IMG/VR virus record: IMGVR_UViG_3300049792_000058
Span: 1-40,547 of that record
DNA from: a virus
Lineage: Duplodnaviria > Caudoviricetes
Direction: 5' to 3' (one strand)
DNA length: 40,547 bases
Positions 2,932 through 25,900 of this stretch are shown here, piece after piece. The notes below the pieces were generated by a model, which saw only the letters and a program-made list of their open reading frames with translations, ran no database searches and was not told the DNA's origin. A program made the position numbers and the translations under genes. The stretch's first letter is position 1. Each line of letters begins with the position of its first letter.

Positions 2932-3070
2932 CAGGCCCCAGGGGCACCTCTAGGAGATTACCGAGCGCTAGGCGCTCCTCCCGTTTACCGTCTACGGGTT
3001 AGACGCTCCGGGGTGGCAGTCCCGGGCCTGGTGAGGGGAACTCGATAGCTGGGGACGGTTACATCCCCAG
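2932..3070 (-). other. Hairpin-rich 5' leader of the capsid operon (candidate structured RNA)
   Basis: CAGGCCC(2932-2938)/GGGCCTG(3024-3030) encloses GAGCGC-TAG-GCGCTC(2963-2977) and CGTCTA-N5-TAGACG(2989-3005). A further stem is CTGGGGA-N8-TCCCCAG(3049-3070). Confidence 0.5.
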
Positions 3071-3071
3071 A

Positions 3072-3100
3072 ATCGTGTCAGCCGCCTGGACGGATGTCAA
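3072..3100 (-). promoter_or_regulatory. Sigma70-type promoter for the capsid/late operon
   Basis: Minus strand TTGACA (3100-3095), 17-bp spacer, CACGAT (3077-3072), in an intergenic gap upstream of the capsid gene. Confidence 0.6.
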
Positions 3101-3156
3101 GCGCCCGTCGCCAGCGCCACCCACGCCGCCGCTTGCCTCCGGTTCGTGCTCGGCGC

Positions 3157-3552
3157 TCACGTCCCACGCTCCTCAAACAGCTGGACCAGGCCCTCGCGGA
3201 GCGCGTCCCGCTCGAGGGTGACCATCTTGAGCTCGGCCCGGACCCGCGCCAGGTCCTTGCCCATCGCCATCCAATTGCGCTGAGGCGCCTCCGCATCGCC
3301 GCCGACAATCGGCGCGTGCCCGTTGGTGGGCGCTGGGGTCGGCTTGATGTCGTGGTCGATCGGTATCGGCCGCCCATCGATGAGCGAGCCGTCTCGGTAT
3401 TGCTGGACCCACTTGCCAAGCAGCTGCTTGTTCACCCCCGCCGCCTCGGCTATCGCGGTGGCGGTGCCCTGCTTGCTGAGGACCTTGTCCACCAGCTCCA
3501 TCTTGAACGCGTTGCTATGCATGCGCTTGGTAGCGCTCTTCTTGCTTGCCAT
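3157..3552 (-). CDS. HTH plus zipper protein resembling IS3-family OrfA, stand-alone
   Basis: RMHSNAFKMELV..IAEAAGVNKQLLGKWVQQY HTH and LARVRAELKMVTLERDALRE zipper. GGAGGG RBS before ATG 3552. No DDE OrfB follows. Confidence 0.7.
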   Translation of the reverse strand: MASKKSATKRMHSNAFKMELVDKVLSKQGTATAIAEAAGVNKQLLGKWVQQYRDGSLIDGRPIPIDHDIKPTPAPTNGHAPIVGGDAEAPQRNWMAMGKDLARVRAELKMVTLERDALREGLVQLFEERGT

Positions 3553-3606
3553 TGCTTCCCTCCGTTGTGGGCCCACCCCTGGGCCCGGTTGCTTATTCGG
3601 TAGCCT

Positions 3607-4059
3607 CTAGACGCTCGGCTTGTCCGCCGCAAGCACGGCGTCATCGATGATGACCATGCCGTCATCGTGGACCGTCACGGTGAGCGGATGCGCCGAGCGG
3701 TTGAGTATCTTGAGATCCGCCGCCAGCTCGCGATTGCGCTGCTCCAGCTCATCGGTGCGGACGCGCGCCACCGTGTCCGCCGTCTTGATGTAGTCCTCCA
3801 GGTCGGTGATGCGGGCCTGCGCCAGCTGCAGCGCCCGGCCGGCATCGTACGCTTTCGCCGCAAAGGACGCATTGTCACGCTCCGCCGCTACCAGCTTGTC
3901 GAACCATCGTTTGTCGACCCGCACGAAGTCCTCGCGCTCGCGCTGGGTCTCCAGCTCCTTGATGCGCTCGACCAGCGGAGCCACGTCGTCATAGTCGACC
4001 ATGGTGCCGTCGGGCGCCTCTTCGAAGTCGGATCCAGCCAAGGGCGCCCAGCGCTTCAT
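3607..4059 (-). CDS. Hypothetical coiled-coil protein (150 aa)
   Basis: ATG 4059 overlaps the upstream TGA; heptad-like charged sequence. Confidence 0.7.
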   Translation of the reverse strand: MKRWAPLAGSDFEEAPDGTMVDYDDVAPLVERIKELETQREREDFVRVDKRWFDKLVAAERDNASFAAKAYDAGRALQLAQARITDLEDYIKTADTVARVRTDELEQRNRELAADLKILNRSAHPLTVTVHDDGMVIIDDAVLAADKPSV

Positions 4060-4202
4060 CGAAAACCCCGCGGGTCGACGACTTCCAGCCGACGACCGAC
4101 TTTGATGCCGAGCCAGCCGCCGGTAATGGCCGAGCAAAACATCCACATCACGATGTCAGCCCACCCGAAGATGCCGGTCGCCTCCAGCTCGCACAGGCTC
4201 AT
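4056..4202 (-). CDS. Small putative membrane protein (48 aa)
   Basis: Hand-translated MSLCELEATGIFGWADIVMWMFCSAITGGWLGIKVGRR...; start/stop overlaps at both ends. Confidence 0.6.
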   Translation of the reverse strand: MSLCELEATGIFGWADIVMWMFCSAITGGWLGIKVGRRLEVVDPRGFR

Positions 4203-4468
4203 CAGCAGTCCTTCGGCTTGGCTGCCCAGAGCGCTTGCGCCAGACGCCAGCTCTCGGTGAGGGCCCCACTCTCGTTCATCGAGAAACGGCTCGGCTCGGC
4301 CAGCAGCCGCTCCGCGATGTGTAGCGCCGCCTGGCGGATGAACTCGATGCGCTCGGTGTCCACGGTCGCGTCCTGAGGGAGCCGGTGCTGCGCCTCCAGG
4401 TGCCCGTACATTTTGCAGAGGTCACACCAAGGGGCCTCCATCACGCGCGCGTTCTCGTCGGTGATCAC
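4202..4468 (-). CDS. Hypothetical protein (88 aa) with CxxC..H..H motif
   Basis: Coupled ORF with GAGG RBS; WCDLCKMYGHLEAQH. Confidence 0.65.
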   Translation of the reverse strand: MITDENARVMEAPWCDLCKMYGHLEAQHRLPQDATVDTERIEFIRQAALHIAERLLAEPSRFSMNESGALTESWRLAQALWAAKPKDC

Positions 4469-4602
4469 TCCGCCCCTCCTCTGAACAGGAACACGTGGGC
4501 CAGTTCCCCCACCAGCTGAGGACTCAAGCGGTCCAGATGCCAGAGCGCCACTGCGGCGGGCAGGAACATGTGGAACGCGTAAATCAGTTTAGCTTTGAGC
4601 AT
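4465..4602 (-). CDS. Small hydrophobic hypothetical protein (45 aa)
   Basis: Hand-translated MLKAKLIYAFHMFLPAAVALWHL...; TGA overlaps the next GTG. Confidence 0.5.
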   Translation of the reverse strand: MLKAKLIYAFHMFLPAAVALWHLDRLSPQLVGELAHVFLFRGGAE

Positions 4603-4915
4603 TGATGCACCGGGGGTGAGGGTTGCGGATGAAGGGACGGCTCCGATCGGCGGAGGTAGTCCTTGTGGAAGAAATACCCCAGTAACCAGGCCGGGTCATT
4701 GGCGGCGAACCGTGCCGTGGCGTATTGCCTCGCTAGGTCATCCCCCCTGAGCGCCAGATTGTCCTCCGCCCCCAGGCCGCCGAGGCCCGCTTTATCCAGC
4801 TCGGCCAGCACCTGCCCCATGCGTCGGCTCGCCACGACAGGCCGAGGCACTTCCGCATGTGCTCCCGGAGCCCATCGCGCGCGTCATCCAGCTCTGCTTT
4901 CCCTACCTGATTCAT
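4584..4915 (-). pseudogene. Hypothetical gene apparently split by a frameshift (ORFs 4733-4915 and 4584-4850)
   Basis: The coupled start at 4915 looks coding for about 25 codons; after that the -1 frame has the better GC3 pattern by eye. Confidence 0.3.
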
Positions 4916-5511
4916 AATAAAAACCCTTCCCTTCTCGCTGCTTGCTTCGCCTCCGCGGGGAGCTGGCTCAGGATCGCCCTGGCCTTCTCCGCGCGCCCTA
5001 CTTCAATCGTCTCGAGGTGACGCTCCACCGCCTCCGCTACCGAGAGCCCGCCCTGGCGCCCTTCCTTGTCGATGGCCCAGAGGAAGCGGAAGCGCGTCAT
5101 CAGCATCCACTTCGCTAGCTCCGCGTTCGGTGGCCGCTCGCCTCGCTCGGTCGGCACGCCGTTGCCCTCCATCTCATCCCAGATGATCTTCATCAGCCGG
5201 CCCGATATCTTCGCCTCCTCCAGGATGAACGCATCGGCGAAGCGCTTGTAGGGCTCGACCGCGTACGGGCCGCTCCCTTCGTGCAACCAGCGAAGCATCG
5301 AACGCGGCGCCACGTTCGCCCGGATGGCGGCCATCTGCGGCCAGTCCCCCACGCGGAGCTCGACCAGCATTCGCTCGTGGAGCTCGGGGCTGAGCGCCGT
5401 CGGGTAGCCGTTGCCGTCCATGATGCTGCTGCCCACCGCGTGCCGGTGCGGCTGCTTCGGCTTCGGCTTCGGTGGAGGCGGAGGCGGAGGCGGTGCCTTC
5501 TTGCGCGGCAT
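4912..5511 (-). CDS. Terminase small subunit-like protein (199 aa)
   Basis: TerS-like layout: HTH (LSPELHERML..AAIRANVAPRSMLRWL), then YKRFADAF helix, then AKWML motif. Confidence 0.6.
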   Translation of the reverse strand: MPRKKAPPPPPPPPKPKPKQPHRHAVGSSIMDGNGYPTALSPELHERMLVELRVGDWPQMAAIRANVAPRSMLRWLHEGSGPYAVEPYKRFADAFILEEAKISGRLMKIIWDEMEGNGVPTERGERPPNAELAKWMLMTRFRFLWAIDKEGRQGGLSVAEAVERHLETIEVGRAEKARAILSQLPAEAKQAARREGFLL

Positions 5512-5787
5512 TCAGCCGGGCTCCCTCCGTGACGCGCAGCGCGCGCGCATCTCGGCGTGGAATGCTTCCAGCTCCGCTACCAGACCGTCCAGGACCGCAT
5601 CGTCCGCCTCCTGGTCCCGCTCTTCCCCGGTGACGCGCCTGAGGATGATGGAGAATACGCTCCGCGCTCCGGCGTAAAAGGCGTTCCGTGTTTCGCTGAC
5701 CTGCACGGCGCTAGCGTTCTGCGGAAGAATGGCCCGGTAGGTTCCCCAGGCCTCCGCCAGGGTCTTGAACTCGTGCTGCTTCGGCAT
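5512..5787 (-). CDS. Hypothetical phage protein (91 aa)
   Basis: ATG 5787 coupled by TGATG; ETRNAFYAGA motif familiar from phage hypotheticals. Confidence 0.7.
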   Translation of the reverse strand: MPKQHEFKTLAEAWGTYRAILPQNASAVQVSETRNAFYAGARSVFSIILRRVTGEERDQEADDAVLDGLVAELEAFHAEMRARCASRREPG

Positions 5788-7638: not shown

Positions 7639-7986
7639 ATGGACGAATTTCTAGACGTGTTTGCGCGGAAGGTGGCCGCGATCGTGCTCTCCGAGATGCG
7701 GGGAGGTGACCTGGGGATGATTGACCAGCACGGAAGCCTGCTCGGCTCCCGCCGCCATTGTGCCGCGGTGCGCCGCCGCATCAAGCGCGGCACGGGCGGG
7801 GCGGCCATCGTCGGCCGTCGCTTCCTGCTCAGCCGGGAAGCGCTCCGGGAGGAGCTGGATGACCTCGATGCTCCGGAGCCTGAGCCCACGGGGGGTAAGC
7901 CACGACCCGGCAAGGGCGGAGATGACGCGGCTGACATCGATGAGGACGCGCTCTACCGTGAGACCCTGGCGGAGCTCGGTCACTGA
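7639..7986 (+). CDS. Excisionase-like DNA-binding protein (115 aa)
   Basis: Coupled to the integrase by TGATG. IDQHGSLLGSRRHCAAVRRR..GAAIVGRRFLLSREAL resembles integrase-adjacent proteins I recall from Polyangiaceae (recollection, not searched). Confidence 0.6.
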   Translation: MDEFLDVFARKVAAIVLSEMRGGDLGMIDQHGSLLGSRRHCAAVRRRIKRGTGGAAIVGRRFLLSREALREELDDLDAPEPEPTGGKPRPGKGGDDAADIDEDALYRETLAELGH

Positions 7987-9677
7987 TGCCGAAGAGCGTG
8001 AGCCCCCACACCGTGCGGGTCCGTGTAGGTGACGGTAAGGCCACGGGCCAGCGCGGCATGATGCGGCTGCCCGCGTCGCTCAGCGCAGAGGTGGCGGCCT
8101 CCCGCAAGCTGCGCCTGGAAGCGATGGCGGCGACGCTCCGCCCGCTCGGTCTCCCGGGGGACTCCCTGGCCTGGCTTCGGAAAGCGTGCCGCCAGGAGAG
8201 CGCCGCGGCCTTCACCGTGATGGAGAAGCTGGTAGCGCGCTTCGTGCGCGAGCAGAGCCAGAAGCAAACGAAGGCGGTAGGGCTCCACGATAAAACCTTT
8301 CGCGAGCTCGCCGACGACTGGACCAGTGGGCGGCTCGCCAAGAAGCACCCGGACTACATCGGGCTCAAGGCCTCGAGCGCGGACGATGCCCAGCGGCTCG
8401 GGGTCATTTGTAACACCATCGGGCACATCGCCATCCGTAAGCTCACCATCGAGGACATCGAGCGGGCCTGCCTGCCCTCTAACCTCCCGAAGGCGGTCAA
8501 GAGCGGCAACACCCGGCGCCAATACAAGCAGGCCATCAAGACGCTCATCGGGTATGCGGTCGCGCCCGTCGGGCTCATCACGGAGAAGGACAACCCCATC
8601 CCGCGTAAAAACTTTCTGCCCAAAAAGCAGAAGGCGCCGATCTACACCTTCCTGTTTCCGACGGAGGACCTGCAGCTCATGCGGTGCGCGACCGTGCCGA
8701 TCATGATGCGTCTCCTTTATGGCTTTCTGGTCCGCGAAGGCCAGCGCGTGGACCACGTGCTCCGGATGACCTGGCGCGACGTCGACGCCGTGAACAACAT
8801 CATGGTGACGGGCCGCACGAAAACCGATCCGGGCCACGACTGGATCGCCGACCCGGGCACCATCCGCGCCTTCGTGCTCATGCGTGGCGACGCGGGCGAT
8901 GATGACCTCATCTTCCCCGGCATCAGCGCCAGCGACCAGATTGAGCTGGCCACTACGTTCCGGGCCCACCTCTGGGAGGCGGGTTGCCGGCGGGACGCCA
9001 TCCACCACGCCAAGGAGGGACACGGGATGCTCCGCCTCCACGACCTGCGTGCTTCCCACGTGACCATCGCGCTCGCGCTCGGCCGGAGCAACCACGACGT
9101 GAAGGCGCGCACCGGGCACAAGAGCGACCAGACCCTGGCGCTCTACTCCCGCAAGGTGAGCATCGCCAGGAAGCTGGCGCTCACCGACTGGACCCCGCTC
9201 GATGAGGCGCTCGGCCTGAGCCGGCCCGCGGTTAAAATAGCTGACGAAAGTTCGCCCGCGGACGTGTCGGCCGAGCTTCCAGATCGGGGGGGGGTGGGCA
9301 GCAGGGTGGGCAGCGTTTCAGTGCTCGTTCCGAATTCCTTAATCATTACGGGTGGGTCGAGCGGGATTCGAACCCACGACCAGCGGATTAAAAGTCCAGT
9401 TAGAGGCAAAAGCGGCAAACATGAGACCACAAAAACACCGGTAAAAGCCGCAAGTAGCTACCCTGAAACACCTAGCTGCCCACCCTCTGATGGGGGGGTG
9501 GGCAGCGCCGTTGATGCCGAAGCGGTCCTCCTTCGCTCGATGGACCAGGCGGCGAAGGACGGCCGCTATGACTTCGCCGCGGAGTGTCTCGCCGAGCTCC
9601 GCGAGCGCCGCCGTAAGCGCGATGCGCCGGGCCTATCCAGCCTCGATGAGCAGCGCGCGAAGCGGGGCGGCAAGTGA
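7986..9677 (+). CDS. int: Tyrosine integrase (563 aa) with attP inside its 3' region
   Basis: Catalytic pattern GQR, HDLR (HxxR), TGH, LALY; long C-terminal extension that crosses the tRNA fragment. Confidence 0.92.
   Translation: MPKSVSPHTVRVRVGDGKATGQRGMMRLPASLSAEVAASRKLRLEAMAATLRPLGLPGDSLAWLRKACRQESAAAFTVMEKLVARFVREQSQKQTKAVGLHDKTFRELADDWTSGRLAKKHPDYIGLKASSADDAQRLGVICNTIGHIAIRKLTIEDIERACLPSNLPKAVKSGNTRRQYKQAIKTLIGYAVAPVGLITEKDNPIPRKNFLPKKQKAPIYTFLFPTEDLQLMRCATVPIMMRLLYGFLVREGQRVDHVLRMTWRDVDAVNNIMVTGRTKTDPGHDWIADPGTIRAFVLMRGDAGDDDLIFPGISASDQIELATTFRAHLWEAGCRRDAIHHAKEGHGMLRLHDLRASHVTIALALGRSNHDVKARTGHKSDQTLALYSRKVSIARKLALTDWTPLDEALGLSRPAVKIADESSPADVSAELPDRGGVGSRVGSVSVLVPNSLIITGGSSGIRTHDQRIKSPVRGKSGKHETTKTPVKAASSYPETPSCPPSDGGVGSAVDAEAVLLRSMDQAAKDGRYDFAAECLAELRERRRKRDAPGLSSLDEQRAKRGGK
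9292..9506. repeat. Four GGGTGGGCAGC copies, putative integrase arm-binding sites
   Basis: Direct copies at 9292-9302, 9304-9314 and 9496-9506, inverted copy at 9475-9485; two on each side of the att core. Confidence 0.75.
9351..9397 (-). mobile_element. attP: attP core: 3' half of a tRNA-Lys(UUU)
   Basis: Minus strand GGA-CTTTTAA-TCCGC-TGGTC-GTGGG-TTCGAAT-CCCGC-TCGACCC-ACC gives anticodon loop (UUU), T arm and 3' acceptor strand. No D arm or 5' acceptor strand is present. Confidence 0.88.
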
Positions 9678-11332: not shown

Positions 11333-11961
11333 GGACGCTGGTGCTTCTATCGGGCGGGCTCGATTCCGTGGCCGCGCTCATCTGGGCGGAAGAGACCGGC
11401 CACGAGCCACACGCTCTCTTTTTTGACTACGGGCAACCGTCCGCGCAACACGAGATCGAGTCGGCAATTCGGGCCACGCGCGCGCTCGCCGTGAGGTTCC
11501 ACCGGTGCGATCTGCGGAGCGCCTTCGGCGGGCAAGCCACTGGGCTTTTCTTCCCGTCGGCATCGAGCACGGTGAACGGCGTGGACACGGCCTTCGTGCC
11601 GTGCCGCAACGTGGTGCTGCTCACGGTGGCCGCGGCGCGCGCGGCCGTGCTCTGGCCCGGTGAGGACATGGCGCTGGTGGTCGGCTTCAACCAGCCCGAC
11701 ACCCTGGGGTTTCCAGACTGCACGGCGGACTTCATGCTCCAGCTGGAAGCGACCATCAACGTCGGCAACGCGGACAAGCCGCACGTCCGCATCGCGGCGC
11801 CCTGGCGTGGCGACACCAAGCCCGGAGTCGTGGGGTGGGTCAGAAAGCACGCCCCGGCCAGGATGGCGCTGCTCGAGGAGTCCTGGAGCTGTTACCGGGA
11901 GCGCGGCCCGTGCGGCGTTTGCACCGCTTGCGTCACGCGCGCCGGAGCCTTCGCCACATGA
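11329..11961 (+). CDS. queC: 7-cyano-7-deazaguanine synthase QueC-like protein
   Basis: SGGLDS PP-loop, FDYGQ, FVPCRN, GFPDC, and SWSCY...CGVCTAC Zn site. Confidence 0.9.
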   Translation: MRTLVLLSGGLDSVAALIWAEETGHEPHALFFDYGQPSAQHEIESAIRATRALAVRFHRCDLRSAFGGQATGLFFPSASSTVNGVDTAFVPCRNVVLLTVAAARAAVLWPGEDMALVVGFNQPDTLGFPDCTADFMLQLEATINVGNADKPHVRIAAPWRGDTKPGVVGWVRKHAPARMALLEESWSCYRERGPCGVCTACVTRAGAFAT

Positions 11962-12647
11962 TCCGCTTCCTAACTGGCCACACGAACTCCGGCGTGGAGG
12001 CGGTAGCTTTCACCCGTAACATCGGGCTGATGATTCAGCCGGGAAATTCCTATCACCTCCGGGTGGACCGCTTCCCGATGTGGGCCGGCGACAATGGCGC
12101 TTTCACCAAGTCAGCCGGCGGCTTCAGCGCGGAGAAGTTCCGGCGCATGCTCGGCCGCCCGGAACTGCTCGCGGCCCGCTCCACCTGCCTGTTCATCGTG
12201 GCCCCCGACAAGCTCCAGGTCCTGCCGGACGGGACCGTCATCGGGGACGCGGCGGGGACGCTCGAGCAATTCGAGCCGTGGGCAAAGGAGATCCGGGCCG
12301 CCGGCTACCCCGTGGCGCTGGTCGCTCAGAACGGCCTGGAGACGATGCTGGACCGCGTGCCGTGGGATCTGGTGGACGTGCTCTTCATCGGCGGGGACAC
12401 CAATTGGAAGCTATCGGACGCGGCGCGCGTCTGCTTGGCAGAAGCAAAACACAGGGGAAAGGGCACTCACATGGGACGGGTCAATTCACTAACGCGGCTC
12501 AGCAAAGCCGCATCGATGCTGGTCGACACGGCGGATGGGACGTTCCTGATGTTCGCTCCGGTCACTAACCTGCCCCGCCTGTTGCACTGGCTGAGCGTGG
12601 TGAACCGCGGCGTGCAAGCCCTGCTGCCCTGGAGAGCGACGCCATGA
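11958..12647 (+). CDS. TGT/DpdA-like base-exchange transglycosylase (229 aa)
   Basis: DNGAF, APD, VAQNG, FIGG, HMGRVNS and DTADGT parallel TGT-fold motifs (DSGGF, LD, QG, IGG, H.LG, D.FD); coupled to queC. Confidence 0.65.
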   Translation: MIRFLTGHTNSGVEAVAFTRNIGLMIQPGNSYHLRVDRFPMWAGDNGAFTKSAGGFSAEKFRRMLGRPELLAARSTCLFIVAPDKLQVLPDGTVIGDAAGTLEQFEPWAKEIRAAGYPVALVAQNGLETMLDRVPWDLVDVLFIGGDTNWKLSDAARVCLAEAKHRGKGTHMGRVNSLTRLSKAASMLVDTADGTFLMFAPVTNLPRLLHWLSVVNRGVQALLPWRATP

Positions 12648-12826
12648 GCGGTCCCGAGCTCGCCGCGTTCGATCCGCCGAAGGAGTTGGTAGACCACCTC
12701 ATCCGCAAGCACAAGCTCCGGAACGAGTCGGGGATCGTCGTGTGTTGGCAGTGCCGCTACAAGCCAGCGCTCACCCCGAGCCTCTACTGCCAGCACTGCC
12801 TGGACCACCACCGGAGCAAGCGCTGA
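12644..12826 (+). CDS. Small Zn-finger protein (60 aa)
   Basis: CWQC...CQHC; coupled on both sides. Confidence 0.7.
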   Translation: MSGPELAAFDPPKELVDHLIRKHKLRNESGIVVCWQCRYKPALTPSLYCQHCLDHHRSKR

Positions 12827-13413
12827 TGCTGGGCACGGCTCCCAAGAACCACCCTCACCAGTCGGTGAAGCGTGGCGTGGACGACAACGTAGACGACCGA
12901 GAGACGCCGCCCTGCGTGTTCGATCCGCTGCACGCGGAATTCAGTTTCACGCTGGACGTTGCCGCGAGCAAACACAACGCGAAGTGCAAGAGCTTCTGCA
13001 CGCTCGCCGGCACCTTCGCCTGGTCCGACACTAACCCTCACCCGGGTGAGGGGTCATGTTGGGACGTGGAGACTGGCCTCGAGTACCCCTGGGCAGGGGA
13101 GCGGGTCTGGTGCAACCCACCCTTCTCGGGGCTGTTGCCCTGGGTGGAGCGGGCCTGGAGCGAGCCGGCGGAGGTGGTGGTGATGCTCCTGCCGAACAAC
13201 CGCCAGGAGCAGCCGTTCTGGCAAGACTGCGTGGAACCGTACCGGGACCGCCCGGGCTCCATCCTCACCACGCGCTTCATTCGACGGCGCCGCCCGTTCC
13301 TGCACATGGGCCAGGGCATCGGCAACCGCACATCCAAGTCTCCGCCCTTCGGGCTGGTGGCTCTGGTGTGGGATCGACGCTCTCCCATCATCGCTCCGCG
13401 CTCTGCGCGCTGA
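12826..13413 (+). CDS. Phage DNA N6-adenine methyltransferase (Dam-like family)
   Basis: ETP..F..L..EF.FTLDVAA..NAK and VWCNPPFS catalytic motif. Confidence 0.85.
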   Translation: MLGTAPKNHPHQSVKRGVDDNVDDRETPPCVFDPLHAEFSFTLDVAASKHNAKCKSFCTLAGTFAWSDTNPHPGEGSCWDVETGLEYPWAGERVWCNPPFSGLLPWVERAWSEPAEVVVMLLPNNRQEQPFWQDCVEPYRDRPGSILTTRFIRRRRPFLHMGQGIGNRTSKSPPFGLVALVWDRRSPIIAPRSAR

Positions 13414-13500
13414 GCCGTTCCGACACGTAATTCGCACACGCGACCCGCGGCACCATCTTGCCGACTGTCAGGTTTATACAATACTCTAGTGAGGTTCCCC

Positions 13501-13689
13501 ATGTTCCAAATCGAATACATCAGCGCCCGCCGTCTCAAGCAGGAGCGAGCCGAAGATCTCGACTGGTCCCCCATCCCGTCACTCTGCTTCGATGACGAGC
13601 AGGCCGCCCAGGCTGAAGCGGACCTACTCGATGCGGAGACCGATGGTGACTACAAGCATCGGGTCCGGCCGATGGCGGTGGCCGCGTGA
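13501..13689 (+). CDS. Hypothetical protein (62 aa)
   Basis: GAGG RBS before ATG 13501, after an AT-richer gap that may hold a promoter. Confidence 0.65.
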   Translation: MFQIEYISARRLKQERAEDLDWSPIPSLCFDDEQAAQAEADLLDAETDGDYKHRVRPMAVAA

Positions 13690-13931
13690 GCCAGGCCCAG
13701 CGGCGCGAGCGCGCGAGTTGCGAAGCATTCGAGCGCCAGATGTCCCGGCTTCACTTTGAGCTCTCGATGGGCACGGCTCGGCGCCACCTCGATGTGCTCT
13801 TGGAATTCCTGGAGAGCTTGCTCCCCCAGACGGGCGGGAGCCTGCAGACCGAGAGCTACGCCCGCCAGCTGAAGGAGGCGCACCACCGCGTCTCGACCCG
13901 CCACAACCTCCGCCTTTTGAAAGGACGCTAA
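13686..13931 (+). CDS. Hypothetical protein (81 aa)
   Basis: Coupled on both sides. Confidence 0.65.
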   Translation: MSQAQRRERASCEAFERQMSRLHFELSMGTARRHLDVLLEFLESLLPQTGGSLQTESYARQLKEAHHRVSTRHNLRLLKGR

Positions 13932-15526
13932 TGACCCAATATCGAAGCATCGCCCTGGTTGATATCTCCTACCTGTTCAAGCGGAACTACATGGCCGCCG
14001 TCAACGGGAGCAGCCCGGGAGCAGCCGCGCAAAAAACCCTGGATAACCTGGCCAGTATCCGCGAGTCCGCTGATCACGTGGTGGTGTGTTGCGACGCTCC
14101 GCCCTACAAGCGCAAGCTGGTATTCGCTGACTACAAGGCCCTGCGCGAAAAGCCCGAAGAGGCGGAGCTGGCTCAGAAGCGCTGGGTGATGACGCGCCTG
14201 AAGGAGCAGGGCTACCAGATCGCCAAGAGCCCCGGCTACGAAGCGGACGATATCATCGCGACGCTCGCTCGCGTGTACGGCGAGAGCTGCCCGGAGGTGC
14301 GTCTCATCGCGTCCGATAAGGACATCGCCCAGTGTGTGACGGATAACGTGATTCAGCACATCCCCCCGACGGGTGAGCGCAAGTGGGAGCGACGGGACGT
14401 GCTCGGGGTGAAAGCCAAGTTTGGGGTCTACCCCCACGAGATGCCGCTCTGGCAAGCCCTAGCCGGCGATAGCACCGATAACGTCCCCGGGGTGCCCGGC
14501 ATCGGCCAGAAGAAGGCGGCCCAGCTGGTGTGCGAATTCAAGACGCTCGCCGGCATCGCGGAGGCCCTGGCGAGCGGGAGCAAGACGGGCGCGATGTGGA
14601 AGAGCCTGGCCGAGCACTGGGCGGAATTGAAGCTCAGTCTCGATCTGGTGACGCTCGACACCCATGTCCCGCTCGACCACACCGCCCTACTCGGCAAGCT
14701 ACCGGTCAAGCCGATGGCGGTGGACAACATGAACGTGGACTCGATGGGATCGGACTCGATGAGCGCGACCGCTTCGGATAGCATGCCGGGCTTCATGCCG
14801 AACACCACGCCAGAGCCGGAGCCCGTGAAGCCAGAGCCCCCCGTGGCCGTGACCGAAGCGGCGGCGCCGCCCGTCCAGGTGGTGACCGAAGCGGAATTCG
14901 ACCCCATCAGCCCGCCGCCGAACGCGCCGCCTCGAGCGCCCGTGCCGGCGCCGCCGCTCCCGAAGCAGGACACGGGGACCGTGAGCAACGTGACGGCGCT
15001 GGTGCGCGAGCCCACGAACTACGGCCTGGTGACGGATGACCTCCAGCCCTGCGATCTGCGGAGCGCGCAGCTGACGAGCAAGTGGCTTTTCGAAGGCGGG
15101 CTCTACCCCCAGTTTCAAAACCCGTGCGCCGTGTTCAGTGTCATTGCGCGGGGCAAGGAGATGGGGCTCAAGATGACCACCAGCCTGGCGAGCTTTCACG
15201 TGGTGGAGGGTAAGCCCGTGGCGAGCGCGGACCTCATCCGGGCCCTGGCCGAGCGGGACCCGAAGTGTGAGTACTTCCGGAAGATCCATTCCGATCGGGA
15301 GAGCGTCACCTGGGAGACGAAGCACCGGGACCACCCGAGTCCCACCACCTACACCTACACTTGGCAGGATGCGGTGGACGCGGGCCTGAGCAACCGGGAC
15401 ATCTGGAAGAAACGGCGCATCGAGATGCTGAGCAAGACGGCGTCCAGCAAGCTCGCGCGCGAGGTCTACGCCGGCTCCACCCTGGGCCTCTACTGCCCCG
15501 AAGAGATGGAGCAGGAGGCAGCGTGA
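13931..15526 (+). CDS. Fusion of a FEN/PolI-type 5'-3' nuclease and a RecT/Redβ-like annealase (531 aa)
   Basis: N-terminus: LVD, CD, RK..DYK, EADD, SDKD, GDSTDNVPGVPGIG.K.A (H3TH). Pro-rich linker. C-terminus: G.EMGL..SL..FHVVEGKP, A.DAGL..W..ML...A....R....LGLY..EEM. Confidence 0.85.
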   Translation: MTQYRSIALVDISYLFKRNYMAAVNGSSPGAAAQKTLDNLASIRESADHVVVCCDAPPYKRKLVFADYKALREKPEEAELAQKRWVMTRLKEQGYQIAKSPGYEADDIIATLARVYGESCPEVRLIASDKDIAQCVTDNVIQHIPPTGERKWERRDVLGVKAKFGVYPHEMPLWQALAGDSTDNVPGVPGIGQKKAAQLVCEFKTLAGIAEALASGSKTGAMWKSLAEHWAELKLSLDLVTLDTHVPLDHTALLGKLPVKPMAVDNMNVDSMGSDSMSATASDSMPGFMPNTTPEPEPVKPEPPVAVTEAAAPPVQVVTEAEFDPISPPPNAPPRAPVPAPPLPKQDTGTVSNVTALVREPTNYGLVTDDLQPCDLRSAQLTSKWLFEGGLYPQFQNPCAVFSVIARGKEMGLKMTTSLASFHVVEGKPVASADLIRALAERDPKCEYFRKIHSDRESVTWETKHRDHPSPTTYTYTWQDAVDAGLSNRDIWKKRRIEMLSKTASSKLAREVYAGSTLGLYCPEEMEQEAA

Positions 15527-15843
15527 CCCAGCCGGAGCAACTCACGGTGGAGGAGCGGGCGGACATCGTCCAGCTCTGCGCCGACGGCGACATATCGGAG
15601 AGCGAAGAGCACAACATCCGCAAGCTCCTACGCATCCACGACGCACTCATCGTGCGCGCTGCAGAGCTGGAGGACCGGACGTGCACGCCCGCGGAGTGCC
15701 GGGTGCTGAAGGAGATGGAGGCTCTGCACATCGTGCACACCACGTACCCGGATGGCCAGAGCACGACGGAGTGGGATGATGTCTTGCCCGCGATCAGAGC
15801 CGAGTTGGCCCGTCGCGCCGACGCCGAAGAGCGGAAGCTATGA
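15523..15843 (+). CDS. Hypothetical protein (106 aa)
   Basis: GTG 15523 after a GGAGG RBS; coupled on both sides. Confidence 0.65.
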   Translation: MTQPEQLTVEERADIVQLCADGDISESEEHNIRKLLRIHDALIVRAAELEDRTCTPAECRVLKEMEALHIVHTTYPDGQSTTEWDDVLPAIRAELARRADAEERKL

Positions 15844-16202
15844 GATACGCCATCACGCCGTGCCCGAAGCCGCGCCAGACCCGGGCGGACAAGTGGAAGC
15901 AGCGGCCGTGCGTGATGCGCTATCGCGCCTTCAAGGACAAGTGCCGGGCGCTTCGCGTGAAGCTGCCCGGCCCGTGCAAGGTGGTTTTCGAGATTGCGAT
16001 GCCGGCGAGCTGGAGCGAGCGGAAGCGCAACTGGATGCACGGCGCGCCGCACCAGCAGAAGCCGGACCTGGACAACCTGCTCAAAGCGCTGTTGGACGCG
16101 CTCTACGACAATGACGCTTCAGTGGCGAACGTCTGGGCCCTGAAGGTCTGGGCCAAAACCCCAGGTATCCACATCTCCCCGCTCGAGGAGGCTCTCCGCT
16201 AG
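15840..16202 (+). CDS. rusA: RusA-family Holliday junction resolvase
   Basis: PKPR and KPDLDNLLKALLDAL..DNDA..V motifs. Confidence 0.9.
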   Translation: MRYAITPCPKPRQTRADKWKQRPCVMRYRAFKDKCRALRVKLPGPCKVVFEIAMPASWSERKRNWMHGAPHQQKPDLDNLLKALLDALYDNDASVANVWALKVWAKTPGIHISPLEEALR

Positions 16203-16874
16203 GGGGTAGATCTTCGCCAGCTGCCCCGCGGCCACCAGCGTAAAGGCTTGCCCGCGCACGGTGACCGGAAGGGTCGAGTGGCTGGCGTCGTAGAGCACCA
16301 TGTCCCCCGGCACGCACTGCGCCTGGAGCCACTGGCCCTCTTCCCAGCGCCCGGGGCCCACCTCCACCACTTCGCCATACGCGGCTGACAATCCGACATT
16401 GAAGCGGCTCGCTTCGTCATCGGTCTCCATCTCGGTAGTGGGCACCCATATCCTGGAGCCCACGCCGTTGGCGAGCTCGAGCGCGCGCGCTTCGTTCTGC
16501 TTGACCAGGATGTAGTGCTGGGCTGGCTTCACCTTGAAGGTCTCCGGGTCGAGCAGCGCGCAGATCATCGCGTTGCGTATCAGGTAGAGGTTCACGCCGC
16601 GCTCCGTCACGCGGTAGCTGATGCTGTTGTTGTTGCAGATGATCGTGTCACCCGGCTTGCACGCCATCGCGTTACGCTGCCCGTACTGCTCGGGAGCGAC
16701 GCCGGCCTGGGTCACGTCCCCGAAGAAAGCTTTATCCTGGTCCTGCCCGGCGAGCACATCCACCATCACGGGCGCCCAGATGGCGCTCCGCGCGCTGAAG
16801 GGCGCGCTCTTGCTCACGGCGGCCTTCTTGCACTCGATGAGGTCGGAACAGACCTTGCCCAGCGGTTGGCTCAT
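16119..16874 (-). CDS. Co-chaperonin GroES-like protein, probably two tandem domains (251 aa)
   Basis: C-half: KPAQHYILVK..GEVVEVGPG..PGDMVLY. N-half: GDVTQAG..KPGDTII..LYLIRNAMICALL. Coupled to the scaffold gene; its 3' end overlaps rusA. Confidence 0.75.
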   Translation of the reverse strand: MSQPLGKVCSDLIECKKAAVSKSAPFSARSAIWAPVMVDVLAGQDQDKAFFGDVTQAGVAPEQYGQRNAMACKPGDTIICNNNSISYRVTERGVNLYLIRNAMICALLDPETFKVKPAQHYILVKQNEARALELANGVGSRIWVPTTEMETDDEASRFNVGLSAAYGEVVEVGPGRWEEGQWLQAQCVPGDMVLYDASHSTLPVTVRGQAFTLVAAGQLAKIYPLAESLLERGDVDTWGFGPDLQGPDVRH

Positions 16875-18028
16875 ACGGCGGCCCTCTTCTTGTTCTTGAG
16901 AATGTCGTTCACGATGTCGTCCGTGCTTTCCTCATCGCGGTTGGCGGCGCCATTGTTTTGACTGTCGCGGCGGAGGAGCGGGGCGGGCGCGGTGCCCAGC
17001 CTCCGCTTGTTCCGGGCGGCGAGCTTCGCCGCCGCGGCGCTCACCTCCGGCGGCACGCGCTTGCCCTCCTTGGCGAGCAGCGGATGCTTGGCGAGCCGGC
17101 GCCGCTCGGCGGCGAGCACCCGGCGGCCTGCCTCCTCCGGCGTCATCGAGAGGCCCACCGGGGTCTTCGTCTTGATGAGCACCCGGTAGATGCGCTCGGC
17201 GAAGCGGGGGACCTTCGTCACCTCCCCCTTCACCGCGCCGCGGATGTGCTGTAGGTCGTTGGCGTACACCTGCTCGGTCGAGAGCTTCTGTTGCTCCTGG
17301 GCCTTCGTGGCCGTGGCCTCCTCCAGCTTCGCGCGTATCTCGGCGAGCTGCTGGGCCATCAACCGCTCGCCCGGCGTCCGGCGCTGCTTCTGGAGGATGA
17401 CCTTCTGGGCGTCATCGTAGGGGAGCTCGGTGACGCCCTCGATCATCTTGACCAGCATCGAGGGGTCGCCGTCGCGCTTGAACGCGAGCCGGGCCTGCTG
17501 GATCTCTTCGTACGGGCGGAGCTGCTCGATGGTGGAGCTGATCTGGCGCTGGGCCTGGGCGTACCACTGCTCATTGGCGACGGTCTGCTGGGTGACGGCC
17601 TGGCTCTTGCCCTCCATGGCGCGGCGTTGCCGGTCGTTGGCGGCGCGCCATTGTGTCCAGATTTTGGCGTTCGGCTGGACCTGCTCCGGCTTCAGCCCGA
17701 AGGCGAGCTTGAACGCTTTATCCAGGTCGCCTGCTTTGAGCGCGGCGCGGGCGGCCTTGAGCGCGGCGCCGTCGGGCGCGTCCGGCTCGGCCGCATCGTC
17801 ATCGTCATCCGGCTCGGCCGCGTCATCGTCCTCCGGATCTGCTTCCGCGTCCTCATCCGCGGCGGGCTCTGGCGGGTCGTCCCCGGCGGGCGCGTCGCCT
17901 GGCTCTGGCGGGTCCCCGTCGCCTCCCAGCAGGTCGTTGACGATATCATCGGTGCTCTCCCCAGCGGGGGCTCCGGCGGTCTCTGGTGCGCCGGCTGGCG
18001 CTGGCGCTGCTACATCATCCGGTGGCAT
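16871..18028 (-). CDS. Putative capsid scaffolding protein (385 aa)
   Basis: Follows the portal gene; acidic disordered N-terminus, helical core, basic C-terminus. Confidence 0.65.
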   Translation of the reverse strand: MPPDDVAAPAPAGAPETAGAPAGESTDDIVNDLLGGDGDPPEPGDAPAGDDPPEPAADEDAEADPEDDDAAEPDDDDDAAEPDAPDGAALKAARAALKAGDLDKAFKLAFGLKPEQVQPNAKIWTQWRAANDRQRRAMEGKSQAVTQQTVANEQWYAQAQRQISSTIEQLRPYEEIQQARLAFKRDGDPSMLVKMIEGVTELPYDDAQKVILQKQRRTPGERLMAQQLAEIRAKLEEATATKAQEQQKLSTEQVYANDLQHIRGAVKGEVTKVPRFAERIYRVLIKTKTPVGLSMTPEEAGRRVLAAERRRLAKHPLLAKEGKRVPPEVSAAAAKLAARNKRRLGTAPAPLLRRDSQNNGAANRDEESTDDIVNDILKNKKRAAV

Positions 18029-20085: not shown

Positions 20086-21693
20086 ATGATATACGAACCG
20101 GACCCGCGCGCCCTCGAGCGAGCGCTAGAGGCTCGGTATGTAGCGGACGATCCGGAGAGCCCCTGGTGGCGCATCCTGGCGGACCTGCATCCGAAGCAGC
20201 GCGCCGTGCTCGAGGACCCGGCTTACGAAAAATGCCTGGAGAAGGGGCGGCGCGCGGGCGGCTCCTGGGTGGTGGCGGCCTGGCTGCTCGAGGAGTGGCA
20301 CCGCTGGCCCGGGCACACGAGCATGTTCGTGGCGCTCACGAAGGAGCACGCCAAGAGCATCCTCTGGCCGACGCTCCTGCAGATGGACGCCAAGTATTCA
20401 CTCGGCATCCACTTCAATGGGCTCGATCTGTCGGCCACCCTCCCCAACGGCTACAAGATCATCCTACGGGCCGCGAAGGACCGGGCCCAGGTGGAGAAGC
20501 TGCGCGGGATAGCGGGCGGTCTCCGGCGCGCGTGCGTGGATGAGGCGGGCAGCTTCGGCCGGCACGACGAGCAATTCCGCTACCTGCTCGAGAGCGTCAT
20601 CAGCCCCCAGTTCATGGACACGGAGCACCTGGGCGGGGGCCAGCTCATCCTGTGCGGGAGCCCCGGCATGGATCCGATGGGCTTCTACTATGAGCGCTGT
20701 AGCGGGCTCAACCACCTGGGCGACCCGGTGCTCAAGTGGAGCACGCACCACTGGACCGCGCTCGATAACCCGCATCTGGACGCCCGGGCGTACCTGCTCC
20801 GGAAGCTGCCCGGGCACATCACGGACGAGACGCCAGCCGCCGAGATGCTGGCCGAGATTGTAGCCCTCCACGAGGTGCCGCTCACCGACGCGCGCTGGGC
20901 CCATACCCTCAGCCGCCTATCGGCCTCCTTCCGCCGCGAGTACCTGGCCGACTGGGTGAAGGACGTCGACGCGCTGGTCTACGTGCCGACGGAGCGGAAT
21001 CTGTTGCCGGTCGGATACACCCTGCCGACGGATCGCGCCTGGCGCATCGTCATCGGGTGTGACGTGGGTTGGGGGGACGGTAACGGCTTCTGCGTGGCGG
21101 CCAAGTGCCTGCAGAGCCGGGACATCATCGTGCTCCGTGCCTACTACCTCCCCGAGATGGACGACTCCCAGATAGCGGACGAACTCAAGCAGCTCCGCAC
21201 CGACTGGCGCGCGAGCGAGATCTATGTCGACTGCGGCGGCGAAGGCGACCGGCTCATCGCCAACCTGGAAAACCACGGGGTATTGGCCCAGGCCGCGGGC
21301 AAGGGGCGGAAGAAACCGCGCATCGAGTACGTCCGGGCGCTGCTCAAGATCGGCGCGCTCAAGCTCCGCCCCGAGCACTGCGCGGCTGTATTGAGCGAGT
21401 GGTCGAGCCTGCCCTGGAGTGAGGACAAGCAGCTCCACCGCGAAGGCTTCGTGGATGACGTGGCGGACGCGCTGCTCATGGCGGTCAACCCGCTCAGCCA
21501 GCGGTTCCTACCCGCCGCGCCCGCCCGCCCGAAGCCGGGAGACCCCGGCTTTGAGCGGCACCAGGAGGAGCTGGAGAAGGCGGCGACGCTCCGGCAAGGG
21601 CGCCGCATCGTGCGGCGCCGTACCCGGTCGCTGGTGTCACTCCCCGTCTGGAGCGATGTCCCGCTCGAGGAGGACCTCCCGCTGGCCGCCTGA
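20086..21693 (+). CDS. terL: Terminase large subunit (535 aa)
   Basis: LHPKQ adenine motif, variant Walker A GRRAGGS, LRG, Walker B ACVDEA, GSP, FRREYLA, nuclease IGCDVG and DDVADAL. Confidence 0.9.
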   Translation: MIYEPDPRALERALEARYVADDPESPWWRILADLHPKQRAVLEDPAYEKCLEKGRRAGGSWVVAAWLLEEWHRWPGHTSMFVALTKEHAKSILWPTLLQMDAKYSLGIHFNGLDLSATLPNGYKIILRAAKDRAQVEKLRGIAGGLRRACVDEAGSFGRHDEQFRYLLESVISPQFMDTEHLGGGQLILCGSPGMDPMGFYYERCSGLNHLGDPVLKWSTHHWTALDNPHLDARAYLLRKLPGHITDETPAAEMLAEIVALHEVPLTDARWAHTLSRLSASFRREYLADWVKDVDALVYVPTERNLLPVGYTLPTDRAWRIVIGCDVGWGDGNGFCVAAKCLQSRDIIVLRAYYLPEMDDSQIADELKQLRTDWRASEIYVDCGGEGDRLIANLENHGVLAQAAGKGRKKPRIEYVRALLKIGALKLRPEHCAAVLSEWSSLPWSEDKQLHREGFVDDVADALLMAVNPLSQRFLPAAPARPKPGDPGFERHQEELEKAATLRQGRRIVRRRTRSLVSLPVWSDVPLEEDLPLAA

Positions 21694-22620: not shown

Positions 22621-22958
22621 CAGGGGTTGAGCACCGTGGAGCCGTCCACCCACCACTGGGCAAACACCGCCGTGAGCGTGTCGTCGGTCGCGGCGGCGAT
22701 GCTCTTCCAGGCGCCGGGGATCGTGGTGTAGAGCCCCGTGGCGGAGCCCGGGATGGGGAAGCTGATCGAGTGGCCGCCGTGGTCGACCAGCACCAGGTTC
22801 AAGATGCCCGCCGTCGAATTGTAGGCCATCACGTTCTGAGGCGAACAATTGGGGTAGGTCGACTGCGCCCGAAGATCGATGGCCGCGGTGAAGGTCGAAA
22901 ACTTCGCCGTGAGCGGCGGCTCGTTATAACTCGCTGGGAGGTGCTCGGTGCTGGCCAT
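22620..22958 (-). CDS. Hypothetical, possibly virion, protein (112 aa)
   Basis: Coupled to the largest ejection gene; β-rich. Confidence 0.65.
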   Translation of the reverse strand: MASTEHLPASYNEPPLTAKFSTFTAAIDLRAQSTYPNCSPQNVMAYNSTAGILNLVLVDHGGHSISFPIPGSATGLYTTIPGAWKSIAAATDDTLTAVFAQWWVDGSTVLNP

Positions 22959-25900
22959 TAGGCGTTTGCTCCTGCTTGAAGGGCGGCGAGACGGGTACGG
23001 AAACCACTGGCCACGGTCCCGGACTGTGCACCGGTTCCGACGCTCTGGGAAGCGCTTTGCGCTTTGCTGCTCTGCTGGTCCTGGGCGGCGAGCATCTGTT
23101 GGCCCACTTCCACGCTCGCGCTCGGGTCGAGTTGCCCGTTCATGCCCAGCAAGGAATCGAGCCTCCGGAGCCGCTCACTGTCCATGCCGCGGCCGGCTTC
23201 GTACATCCGTTGCACCTGCCCCAGCATCTCCGCGCGTAGCGGCTCCCAGAGCTCTCCCCAGTTCTGCTGAAACGCCAGCACCTCTTCGGGCGGCGCGTTC
23301 GATCCGGCGATGTCCCGCATCGCTTGCGCCGGCATGGTGGAGCCGACGAAGCGGTAAGCAAAGTCGAGCGAGCGGTCCGCGCTCGGCGGCATGCCCTCCG
23401 GGTCGAGCAGGGTCTTGCCCACCCGCGGCGGGACGTTCTGCTGGAGGTAGCTCACCAGCTGGTTGGCCTTGCCCACGAGGGCCATGTAGACGCTCGGGTG
23501 CGTCTGGCTGAGCGCGCCGGTGGACCCCGCCAGCCGCTCGATGAGCGCCTCCGGATCGCTACCGAGCTCGGCGATGGTGTCGCGCGCCTGGTCGACCGCG
23601 TCGTCCAGCGAGCGCTTGCCCGTGAACAAGGTGAGCGGGTCCTTCGTCTTCGGGGGATTGCGCCGGAGCGCATCACTCGCGCGCTGGCGGACGAGAGCGT
23701 CCCCGCCGGCCGCGATGCCCTTCATGGCCTCGCGGTAGCGCACGTCCGGGCTCTGGCTCTCCGGGGTGGGTCGCTCGGGTGGCGGTGGCTCCGGCGGCAT
23801 ATCGGCTGCGCTGGCCTGGCCTTCGGCGGGGCTTGTCGCCTGCTCCAGATCCAGAACAGGAGTCCCATCTTCCAGCTCACCGCGGCCGAGTATCTTGAAC
23901 CGTTTCTCCGGCGGAATCAGGACTTCCATCTCACCCAAGCCGCCGAAATGGGATACATCGGCGCCCTTGTCGAGCGTGTTTATCCTCAGCATCACCGGCG
24001 AGCCGGCTCGGTACTTGTCGGCAAATGACCTGGCCACGCCGTGGCGATACGACGCGCTCTCAACGCCGCTTGTCGTGTATTCGCCTGCGGCCGCAAGCTT
24101 GTCGATCTCCGCCGGAGACATCCGGAGCCCGCGATAGAGCGGCCCATGAGCAGTGGGGTTGTCGATGGCCAATCGCTCGACTGCCTTGAGCAGATGTGGG
24201 TCGAGCTTCGTCGTGGTGGCGTTTTTTAGCACCCATTTCGAGACGGCATCCGACTCCGCTTCAGGCAGCGCCTTCGCGGCGGTCGTGCCCGCTTTGCGTA
24301 GTGCCTTATACCAAGGAGCCGCGATCGAAGGGTCGGACTGCAAACTCACCTTGCCCATGAGCCCCTTGCCCCCGAGCGCCAGCGCGAGCCCACCCGCGGC
24401 GGCGCCGAGCGCGCCAGCGTTGCCGCCATCATCGCCCTCCCCGTCCGCTTGCGCGGCGCCGGCGGCAAACAGGCCAGCGCCAGCCACCTTGTTGCCGTGG
24501 TCGCTCACGGCTTGCTTGACGGCGCCGCCGAGGCCCCCGCCCGGGCCACGCGGCGCGATGGGCGCGCCCCGCTCCCGGAGCGCGTCCTGAATCCAGTCGG
24601 CATAGTTGGCCGAATACGACGGGTCCCCCCAGGCTTCGTGCCGGGCGAAGCGCTTGTAGGCCTGGTCCCATACGTCCGCGAGCGGCGTGCCCTTTTCGAG
24701 ATGCGTGCTCTCCATCACCTTGCCGAGCGTGCGCACCGCGCCGAAGGCTTGCCCGACCACCGGCGTCCGCTCGGCCAGGTTGGCAATGGCAGATGCCCAT
24801 TGCTTCGGATCGCGCTTCATGGCCGCCACCCGGTTCTTGGCGACCCCGACGGTGGAGGCCAGGTTCCACTCCTCCTTGAAGTTCCGGATATCCTCGAGCA
24901 TCGATTCCAGGCCATCCTTGCCCGTGATGCCGTGCGCCTGGCGCGCCTCGATGAGCCCTTGCATGTTGTCGAGCGCGCCGTCGATATGGGCGCCGAGCTC
25001 GCGCACCATGCGGGGGTCCTCCCCGTAGACGGCCATCAGCCGCTTTGCCGTGCTCTCCTTGGTGATGCGGCCCGCGCTCGCGTCGTCGTATTTGATGTGC
25101 CCGGTCGCTTCCAGGAGCTTGTTCTGAAACGCGCTCCAGTGCTCGAGCAGCCCCGCCCAGGGGCGATTGAGGGACTTCTGTAGGACGGCGTTAGAGCCGA
25201 AGAGCTTCGGATTCTCCAGGCCCTTTCGGATCTCGCCCTCTTTACCGAAGAGCGGGCGGAGGATGGACTTCAGCTCTTCGCGCGTCGTCGCGTCCGTGTT
25301 GAAGCTCGCATCGATCTTCATCATGTTCTTGTCCATCCGCTGCTTGAAGGCGTTCAGCAGGATGTTGCGCTCGCCACCGTCGGGCTCCTTCATGATGCGG
25401 TGGGTGAAGCTCTCGATGTCGGCGGCGGCTTGCTTGCCCAGGTTGCCGAAATCGAGCGCGTCCGGGTTGCCGCGCGTGAACTCCCGAATGCTGGTCGTCA
25501 CCGCCTCCCCCTGGTCGGCGATATCTGTCAGCCACTTGGATTGCGCCTCCAGCACTTTGGGGGTCCAGGCATCGGCGCCGATCTTCATGTCGGCATAGCG
25601 CAAGTTATTGCCGAGACTTTCGCTCAGGCCATTGTTCAGGCGCGTCACGGCGTCGGCCGAGTGCATCGAGATGAGTGGCAGCGTGTCCTCCGCGTCGCGC
25701 GCCAACACGGCCGCGTCCCGCGGGCTCATGGTGCGGATGGCCGCATCGAAGGGCTCGTCCATCTCGGCGGCGCTCGCGGCACCCACGCTCTGGGCGACGC
25801 GGCGCCCGCTGCTCAGGCCGCCCTTATCGAGCTGCCCCTGGGCCTCGGCCACGATGTTGCGCTCGGCCACTCCCGCAGCACCAGCCGCGCCCTTCTCGGG

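Follow-up and report, generated by a model that had tools for sequence, protein, structure and literature searches.

The gene considered here lies in a 40.5-kb Caudoviricetes genome, IMG/VR record IMGVR_UViG_3300049792_000058, which has direct terminal repeats and is rated 100% complete by CheckV; the whole stretch of 40,547 nucleotides, with a GC content of 64-72%, is called the window. Within it, a single open reading frame (ORF) encodes a predicted 5' nuclease of the flap endonuclease (FEN)/DNA polymerase I (Pol I) type and, on the same chain, a core with the fold of the Redβ and RecT annealases:

13931..15526, + strand: fusion gene, an uninterrupted ORF of 531 amino acids (aa) with an ATG start
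13949..14683, + strand: Pol I/FEN-type 5' nuclease, residues 7-251 (Pfam and PDB matches)
14699..15013, + strand: disordered Pro/acidic linker, about residues 257-361 (low pLDDT, the predicted local distance difference test)
14716..14731, + strand: predicted internal start, with a Shine-Dalgarno (SD)-like GGCGGTG (14716-14722), a 6-nt spacer and ATG 14729 (Met267)
15014..15508, + strand: Redβ/RecT-fold annealing core, about residues 362-526 (Pfam, fold and profile matches)

A sequence-only reading of the window had claimed an uninterrupted 531-aa frame holding a 5' nuclease with its acidic motifs and helix-three-turn-helix (H3TH), a Pro-rich linker of about 100 aa and a C-terminal RecT/Redβ-like domain, with RusA two genes downstream, and all of these are borne out below.

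Two domains on one chain

The full-chain AlphaFold model (predicted template modelling score 0.60) contains two confident domains separated by a low-confidence, Pro-rich stretch at about residues 261-360, and therefore no fixed packing of the domains is predicted; among relatives, the linker ranges from 27 to 194 aa. One Logan contig spans positions 13000-17000 without differences, but it comes from a soil metagenome, the only run in which the window was found and probably its source, is not independent and contains no raw reads.

The nuclease matches Pfam 5_3_exonuc_N (PF02739) over residues 7-164 (E 3e-23, 82.6 bits; cut-off 34.3) and the H3TH model 5_3_exonuc (PF01367) over residues 166-251 (E 1.5e-20, 73.9 bits; cut-off 40), both far over threshold, and its nearest solved structures are the Pol I 5' domains of Taq (E 3e-22) and M. 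smegmatis and ExoIX/Xni (E 2e-19), followed by T5 exonuclease. Conservation was judged on 80 fused genes below 70% identity, drawn from 151 complete fused loci. Pairwise identity of the nuclease domain falls to 21% within this set, and nine acidic residues (D11, D55, E104, D106, D107, D129, D131, D180 and D183) are invariant in 80/80 genes, as are R61, Y68, K69 and R72. We take the nine to bind the metals of sites I and II and the YKxxR motif to form the gateway; most of these acidic and gateway residues align with Taq, and the H3TH glycines are present in the window protein. The closest unfused nucleases are bacterial Pol I 5' domains at 30-43% identity (119/120 among the matches listed), the named ones being mostly 'Pol I, partial'. 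By these features, the domain is an intact predicted FEN/Pol I-type 5' nuclease.

Searched as part of the whole protein, the annealing core falls below the 24-bit cut-off of Pfam RecT (E 8.5e-5, 22.6 bits), and residues 351-531 alone pass it (E 8.3e-6, 25.9 bits); PHROGs gives a match to RecT-like family 4171 (E 3e-5). For the model of the domain (pLDDT 90.6), Foldseek returns λ Redβ177 (7ujl) first, at E 5e-6 and template modelling (TM) scores of 0.55/0.60, as the sole match below E 0.001, with LiRecT (7ub2) second at E 2.7e-3. VIA, over 48,161 chains, also places Redβ at the top (Z 8.9, 138 residues aligned, root-mean-square deviation 3.5), ahead of LiRecT (6.5), a double-stranded RNA-binding domain (dsRBD, 6.4) and Rad52 (5.2). 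Identity to Redβ in the structural alignments is 14-16%, and to unfused, full-length RecT-type relatives about 35-42%. With a profile of 41 cores, 7ujl is the only PDB match (E 4.6e-7), the alignment covering Redβ 98-182, so that F66, which stacks on the incoming strand, falls outside. Mapped by spacing from the aligned motif, Redβ W143, M150, R161, G168, Y170 and E174 correspond to W492, M499, R510, G519, Y521 and E525; W492 is kept in 79/80 and R510 in 80/80 fused genes. In Redβ, both W143 and R161 touch the template DNA strand (PMC9512822), and the filament is described as holding four bases per monomer. By its modelled fold, the domain belongs to the Redβ/RecT branch, and annealing is its predicted activity.

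What the core lacks is a tail. The window protein ends about 5 aa past the core, with no C-terminal domain, and among the best 150 of 8,383 library representatives, the tail measures 0-14 aa in 71/71 fused proteins vs 39-477 aa in 56 unfused ones. In λ Redβ, the C-terminal domain binds Exo and the host SSB, a protein that binds single-stranded DNA (PMC11611040).

The fused family and its genomes

A search with the C-terminal domain found 191 proteins among 894 candidates, and architecture was judged on 120 of them; counting the query, both domains are present in 115/120 among the matches listed, and the five single-domain proteins begin in linker-like sequence or nuclease remnants. In a 50%-identity library, 8,383 representatives match the core at E <=0.001, and the best 150 comprise 71 fused proteins, 56 unfused ones with the core near the N-terminus and a tail, and 23 with no nuclease match and no tail, most of which look like fragments. 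Separately, 14 short stand-alone cores were read as fragments, as they mostly start in linker or nuclease remnants and 13/14 lie on contigs shorter than 7.1 kb.

That the joining of the two domains is an assembly artefact, or a chance read-through of two adjacent genes, might be argued from the window's only supporting contig coming from the probable source run with no raw reads, and from the frame breaks in two relatives (L221 and L178, below). With both domains fused in 114/119 relatives among the matches listed, 80 non-redundant intact genes and a single clade in the trees, this explanation is effectively refuted, and we give it next to no weight.

In the core tree of 166 sequences (87 fused, 79 unfused), one branch splits the two states (Shimodaira-Hasegawa-like approximate likelihood ratio test 97), and a single state change is needed where shuffles need 55. 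A nuclease tree, built on 94 domains, gathers into one clade (support 99) 40 fused domains together with a probable fragment and two exceptions; Pol I domains and other phage FENs fall outside it. The two domains also co-diverge, their identities being correlated across the 80 genes (rho 0.52; 0/499 permutations as high). The nuclease-annealase fusion is a deep family, probably with a single origin. Its loci have a GC content of 54-70%, the ESM Atlas holds at least seven automatically named viral clusters with this architecture, and among cultured phages, 0/493 matching INPHARED records cover 80% of the protein, the closest cultured cores being Gordonia RecT-like proteins at 29% identity.

The sequence-only reading knew of no characterised example and allowed for database homologues. 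Such homologues are many, and no paper on such a fusion was found in the searchable literature, which leaves subscription journals and most supplements outside. In their accessible text, PMC11611040, PMC8093625, PMC12054835 and PMC11783212 do not use the terms 'fusion' or 'fused'; what is accessible of PMC8093625 names YqaJ, DUF3799, DUF1351 and lactamase B2 as RecT neighbours. RecT is not mentioned in the text or in one supplement of PMC5499597, and the accessible part of PMC13454183 reports eight myxobacterial recT operons, four with recE, which could include a member of the fusion family.

Within the family, one contig carries another kind of annealase. On L171 (IMGVR_UViG_3300046740_000286, 3059-4531), a nuclease of the same clade, 69% identical to that of the RecT-bearing L152, is fused to an Mgm101 domain (Pfam Mgm101 E 5e-29; yeast Mgm101, PDB 9yi6, E 2e-16).

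In the genomes compared, the fusion and the usual exonucleases do not occur together. The window genome has no YqaJ, DUF3799 or PDDEXK_1, and neither has any of the 58 other fusion records (59 in all), other PD-(D/E)xK families not having been searched genome-wide; 11/26 unfused records have one (7, 2 and 2), a difference with a Fisher p of 4e-7 when kinship is ignored. Conversely, no FEN domain was found in the 26 unfused records. These counts leave out 14 metagenome loci; of the 59 fusion records, 44 are at least 90% complete, one is fused across the record ends, one is cut and one frameshifted, and among the nine unfused records of at least 90% completeness, four have one of the three exonucleases. 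Closer to the gene, YqaJ or DUF3799 occurs at 7/29 unfused loci (within 1.8 kb) vs 0/26 fused ones (within 1.5 kb). The proposal that a different nuclease fold replaces the separate PD-(D/E)xK exonuclease is therefore backed from three sides: the exclusion, the loss of the tail and the Mgm101 exchange.

Some relatives deserve mention for themselves. After the L171 fusion comes a 154-aa ORF with an acidic tail and a terminal Phe, SSB-like by resemblance only. On L178 (IMGVR_UViG_3300009177_000051, 3971-5561), a nuclease of the fusion clade continues into the opening residues of a phrog_10048 protein, after which the frame is lost; a weak DUF1351 gene comes next. A profile link from phrog_10048 to the RecT core or to Mgm101 was not found, and 11 relatives had no nuclease within 3 kb; on these two grounds, phrog_10048 was not upheld as a third annealase family. 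In L221 (3764-5612, provirus G084), the fusion gene lies in two frames, broken close to where the nuclease domain ends, L218 and L220 being intact relatives of it; in L053 (11250-12869), a TROVE/Ro60 gene lies directly downstream of the fused gene. A distant fused relative, L015, is on a 138-kb contig (G085:C272); its genome, of 7.9 Mb, gives 18 MYXO-CTERM matches, including one on this very contig, which suggests a myxobacterial host for this member only. On contig C165 of G085 there is another FEN match, which contains two TGA stops. In that genome's family, 3/151 genomes have the core, and a script found no nuclease domain at the two new loci.

A probable second start in the linker

Translation from ATG 14729 would yield a 265-aa product that is annealase only and ends at 15526. 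Its SD is the second strongest among the 44 in-frame ATG/GTG codons of the fusion gene. Across the 80 genes, Met accounts for 77/2,000 residues in the first 25 positions of the linker (3.85%), compared with 1.38% of the remaining linker and 2.25% of the domains, and 55/80 genes have a Met there. The best early-linker pairing of an SD with ATG averages -3.9 kcal/mol vs -2.3 in codon shuffles (0/200 as low), with no excess in two control regions, and SD cores peak 4-10 nt upstream of the early-linker starts. When synonymous codons are resampled with the protein fixed, 1-2/100 sets have an SD as low and 0/30 folding as weak, and the control regions do not go beyond chance. The signal is in frame (33 genes vs 8 and 0 in the other frames) and persists across linkers that cannot be aligned; the Mgm101 exchange has a strong SD and GTG early in its linker (-12.2). 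An ATG or GTG with an SD of -5 kcal/mol or stronger is present in 47/80 genes, with products of 211-320 aa. The genes behind these statistics are related and not independent of one another, and the host may have another anti-SD sequence than the one assumed.

The signal might instead be left over from an ancestral operon of two genes, or be a by-product of the acidic composition of the linker, with only the full-length protein being made; this would touch the second product alone and would fit the rest of the mechanism proposed below. Glu and Asp codons yield GAGG-like runs, the SD effect under synonymous resampling is small (-4.67 vs -4.2), early-linker SDs are weaker than those of the genes' own starts (-4.23 vs -5.83), and 33/80 genes have no start at -5 or stronger, the share with one being a limited 47/80. 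In the window gene itself, mRNA folding around ATG 14729 is ordinary (42nd percentile), and one codon inside a domain outscores it on SD; the early-linker region was, moreover, chosen after the Met excess had been seen. Either reading sits less well with an excess that withstands both codon shuffling and synonymous resampling, folding included, with its restriction to one frame, its spacing peak and its absence from control regions, or with its recurrence in unalignable linkers. We regard the relic or by-product as a serious contender that falls a little short of being probable, and lean slightly, on sequence statistics, towards a second in-frame start that supplies a nuclease-free annealase. 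Precedents for genes within genes reportedly exist in the literature. The description of the fusion as a one-protein machine accordingly holds for the two folds in a single chain and may not hold strictly for the products of the gene.

No nested out-of-frame gene was found in the window linker; among the 80 genes, there are 11 out-of-frame candidates of at least 40 aa, mostly of low complexity. A linker motif, VTEAEFDPISxxP (about 14880-14920), recurs in many relatives, its acidic-aromatic part in 21/80 and ISxxP in 16/80; it is a candidate for a groove-blocking or partner-binding peptide, and our guess is that SSB might be displaced through this acidic motif.

Proposed mechanism, rivals and known systems

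The fusion gene sits in the early replication/modification block of the phage and overlaps both of its neighbours:

upstream: ORF of 81 aa, whose stop overlaps the fusion gene start (TAATG)
15523..15843, + strand: ORF of about 106 aa, function unassigned, whose GTG overlaps the fusion stop
15840..16202, + strand: RusA-family Holliday junction resolvase (Pfam E 3.5e-13; PHROG 140, E 2.5e-22)

The ORF of about 106 aa has no match in Pfam or PHROG, and no sigma-70 promoter or terminator was found across 13300-16400.

We consider it likely that the fusion constitutes the whole exonuclease-annealase recombination unit of the phage, in place of λ Exo and Beta, with its activity predicted. The two-protein precedent is T7 gp6, a FEN that resects duplex ends distributively and cuts flaps; RecA-independent recombination depends on it, and gp2.5 stimulates it (PMC4124056). 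Following this model, the nuclease would act on linear or nicked phage DNA and resect its 5' ends, probably in a distributive manner; the core would oligomerise on the exposed 3' strand and anneal the complementary strand; the nuclease on its tether would remove 5' flaps displaced at the junction, with RusA resolving junctions. Since the tail is gone and the nuclease is attached covalently, the linker would, most simply, stand in for the tail-mediated contact between Exo and Beta. The in-frame start, with the slight preference given above, would add nuclease-free subunits, giving a filament with fewer nucleases than annealases. We put forward more tentatively, and without counting it as the probable outcome, the full combination: in a widespread phage lineage, single-strand-annealing recombination would be run by one gene that makes a FEN nuclease-annealase chain and, in the same frame from the linker start, a nuclease-free annealase, resecting ends and trimming flaps without the exonuclease/SSB-binding tail considered essential for Redβ; the internal ribosome-binding site would set the nuclease:annealase ratio of the filament; and the nuclease-linker cassette would be a modular socket for RecT/Redβ, Mgm101/Rad52 and perhaps phrog_10048.

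Several observations pull in the other direction. The resemblance in fold is moderate (TM 0.55; Z 8.9 vs 6.4 for a dsRBD), and the basic positions of Redβ motif 6 vary (K502 in 46/80, T503/R in 41/34). Tail-less λ Redβ anneals in vitro and gives no recombination in vivo (PMC5052646); no SSB gene was matched in the window genome, and no substitute for the SSB-binding tail was identified. RusA is absent from the neighbours of 26 fused loci (ORFs of at least 100 aa within 1.5 kb). The Mgm101 exchange was seen on one contig, with no second case in one viral scan, and the trees are quick searches without bootstrap, the core tree leaving out the 23 cores with neither nuclease match nor tail. As for the exonuclease exclusion, 15/26 unfused records likewise have no detectable exonuclease, other phage groups make up the unfused set, and 17/26 of its records are less than 90% complete; the exclusion is partly a lineage effect.

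The same material could be read as a replication-side enzyme, whose nuclease removes RNA primers or 5' flaps at Okazaki fragments or recombination-primed forks and whose core anneals or targets, with resection left to the host. Such a role would suit the kinship of the nuclease to Pol I 5' domains (the 119/120 above), the removal of primers by FENs (PMC4124056) and the place of the gene in the early block. Against it, the fusion takes the slot of YqaJ/DUF3799, and 0/59 fusion records have a family A polymerase, from which it follows that they presumably rely on host replication with its own Pol I 5' nuclease; the G085 genome has one. We judge this role unlikely. Still less probable is that the C-terminal domain has lost annealing and does no more than serve the nuclease as an oligomeric module for ssDNA binding or processivity, for instance in host DNA breakdown: the missing C-terminal domain, the recombination-dead tail-less Redβ (PMC5052646) and the 14-16% identity to Redβ would be expected of such a module, but the equivalents of W143 and R161 are kept, identity to unfused full-length RecT-type relatives is about 35-42%, the loci of these relatives often lie beside YqaJ, DUF3799, gp157 or SSB genes, the core has been replaced by another annealase family in L171, and there is a signal for a nuclease-free isoform.

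Set beside known systems, the fusion as an exonuclease-annealase unit is nearest to λ Red (Exo and Beta) and Rac RecE and RecT (EATR/SynExo), with which it shares a Redβ-fold core that keeps the equivalents of W143 and R161, a partner nuclease that is 5'-directed and a place in the early region of a temperate phage; its unfused relatives often adjoin YqaJ/DUF3799. In searchable papers, phage exonuclease-annealase recombinases consist of two proteins that the tail of the annealase connects, and the nucleases of the reviewed RecT/Redβ systems are PD-(D/E)xK enzymes. The fusion, by contrast, is one chain, with an N-terminal nuclease of FEN/Pol I rather than toroidal PD-(D/E)xK fold, a disordered linker, no C-terminal domain for binding Exo and SSB and, probably, a second in-frame product. 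It departs from two defining features of λ Red/RecET, the tail and the separate PD-(D/E)xK nuclease, and we class it as a variation on the phage exonuclease-annealase recombinase, not as a system of a new kind. T7 has a family A polymerase of its own, and its gp2.5 is an SSB of the oligonucleotide/oligosaccharide-binding fold, not of the RecT fold. The T7 pair of gp6 and gp2.5 is alike in combining a FEN-type nuclease with a cognate ssDNA-binding/annealing protein (PMC4124056), but these are separate proteins, and the window nuclease resembles Pol I 5' domains more than it does the T5/T4 enzymes. The Pol I 5' domain and ExoIX (Xni) are the best PDB matches of the nuclease and share the full acidic set and H3TH; the fusion nuclease is tethered to an annealase, not a polymerase, and forms its own phage clade. 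The Mgm101/Rad52 annealases share the superfamily fold (Rad52 Z about 5) and replace RecT behind the nuclease in L171, whereas the window domain is in the Redβ/RecT branch.

A natural, covalent, tail-less version makes the tail's roles in exonuclease loading and SSB binding testable, as well as the nuclease:annealase ratio that the filament needs. More speculatively, a 1.6-kb single-gene enzyme that resects, anneals and trims is a candidate for recombineering in GC-rich hosts (a myxobacterial contig carries one relative) and for in vitro assembly with one enzyme, like assembly with T5 exonuclease.

Elsewhere in the window are:

7986..9677, + strand: tyrosine integrase, 563 aa (PHROG 1, E 1.5e-25)
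20086..21693: terminase (Pfam and PHROGs searches)

Given the integrase, the phage is probably temperate, as judged from sequence; a host search for the window phage, by its terminase (no match) and its integrase (a single weak match), named no host. At 11347-13413 lie QueC (E 4e-35), a phrog_15826 protein (11835-12647) and a Dam methyltransferase, possibly a DNA-modification cluster; the motifs of the phrog_15826 protein, we assume, resemble those of a TGT/DpdA-type deazaguanine inserter. A probable virion protein of 1212 aa (22958-26596, - strand) has, at residues 801-907, a hint of an ADP-ribosyltransferase below threshold (Pfam E 0.064). A 251-aa protein (16119-16874, - strand) has two GroES/Cpn10-like stretches and adjoins genes for 385- and 667-aa proteins of the structural region.

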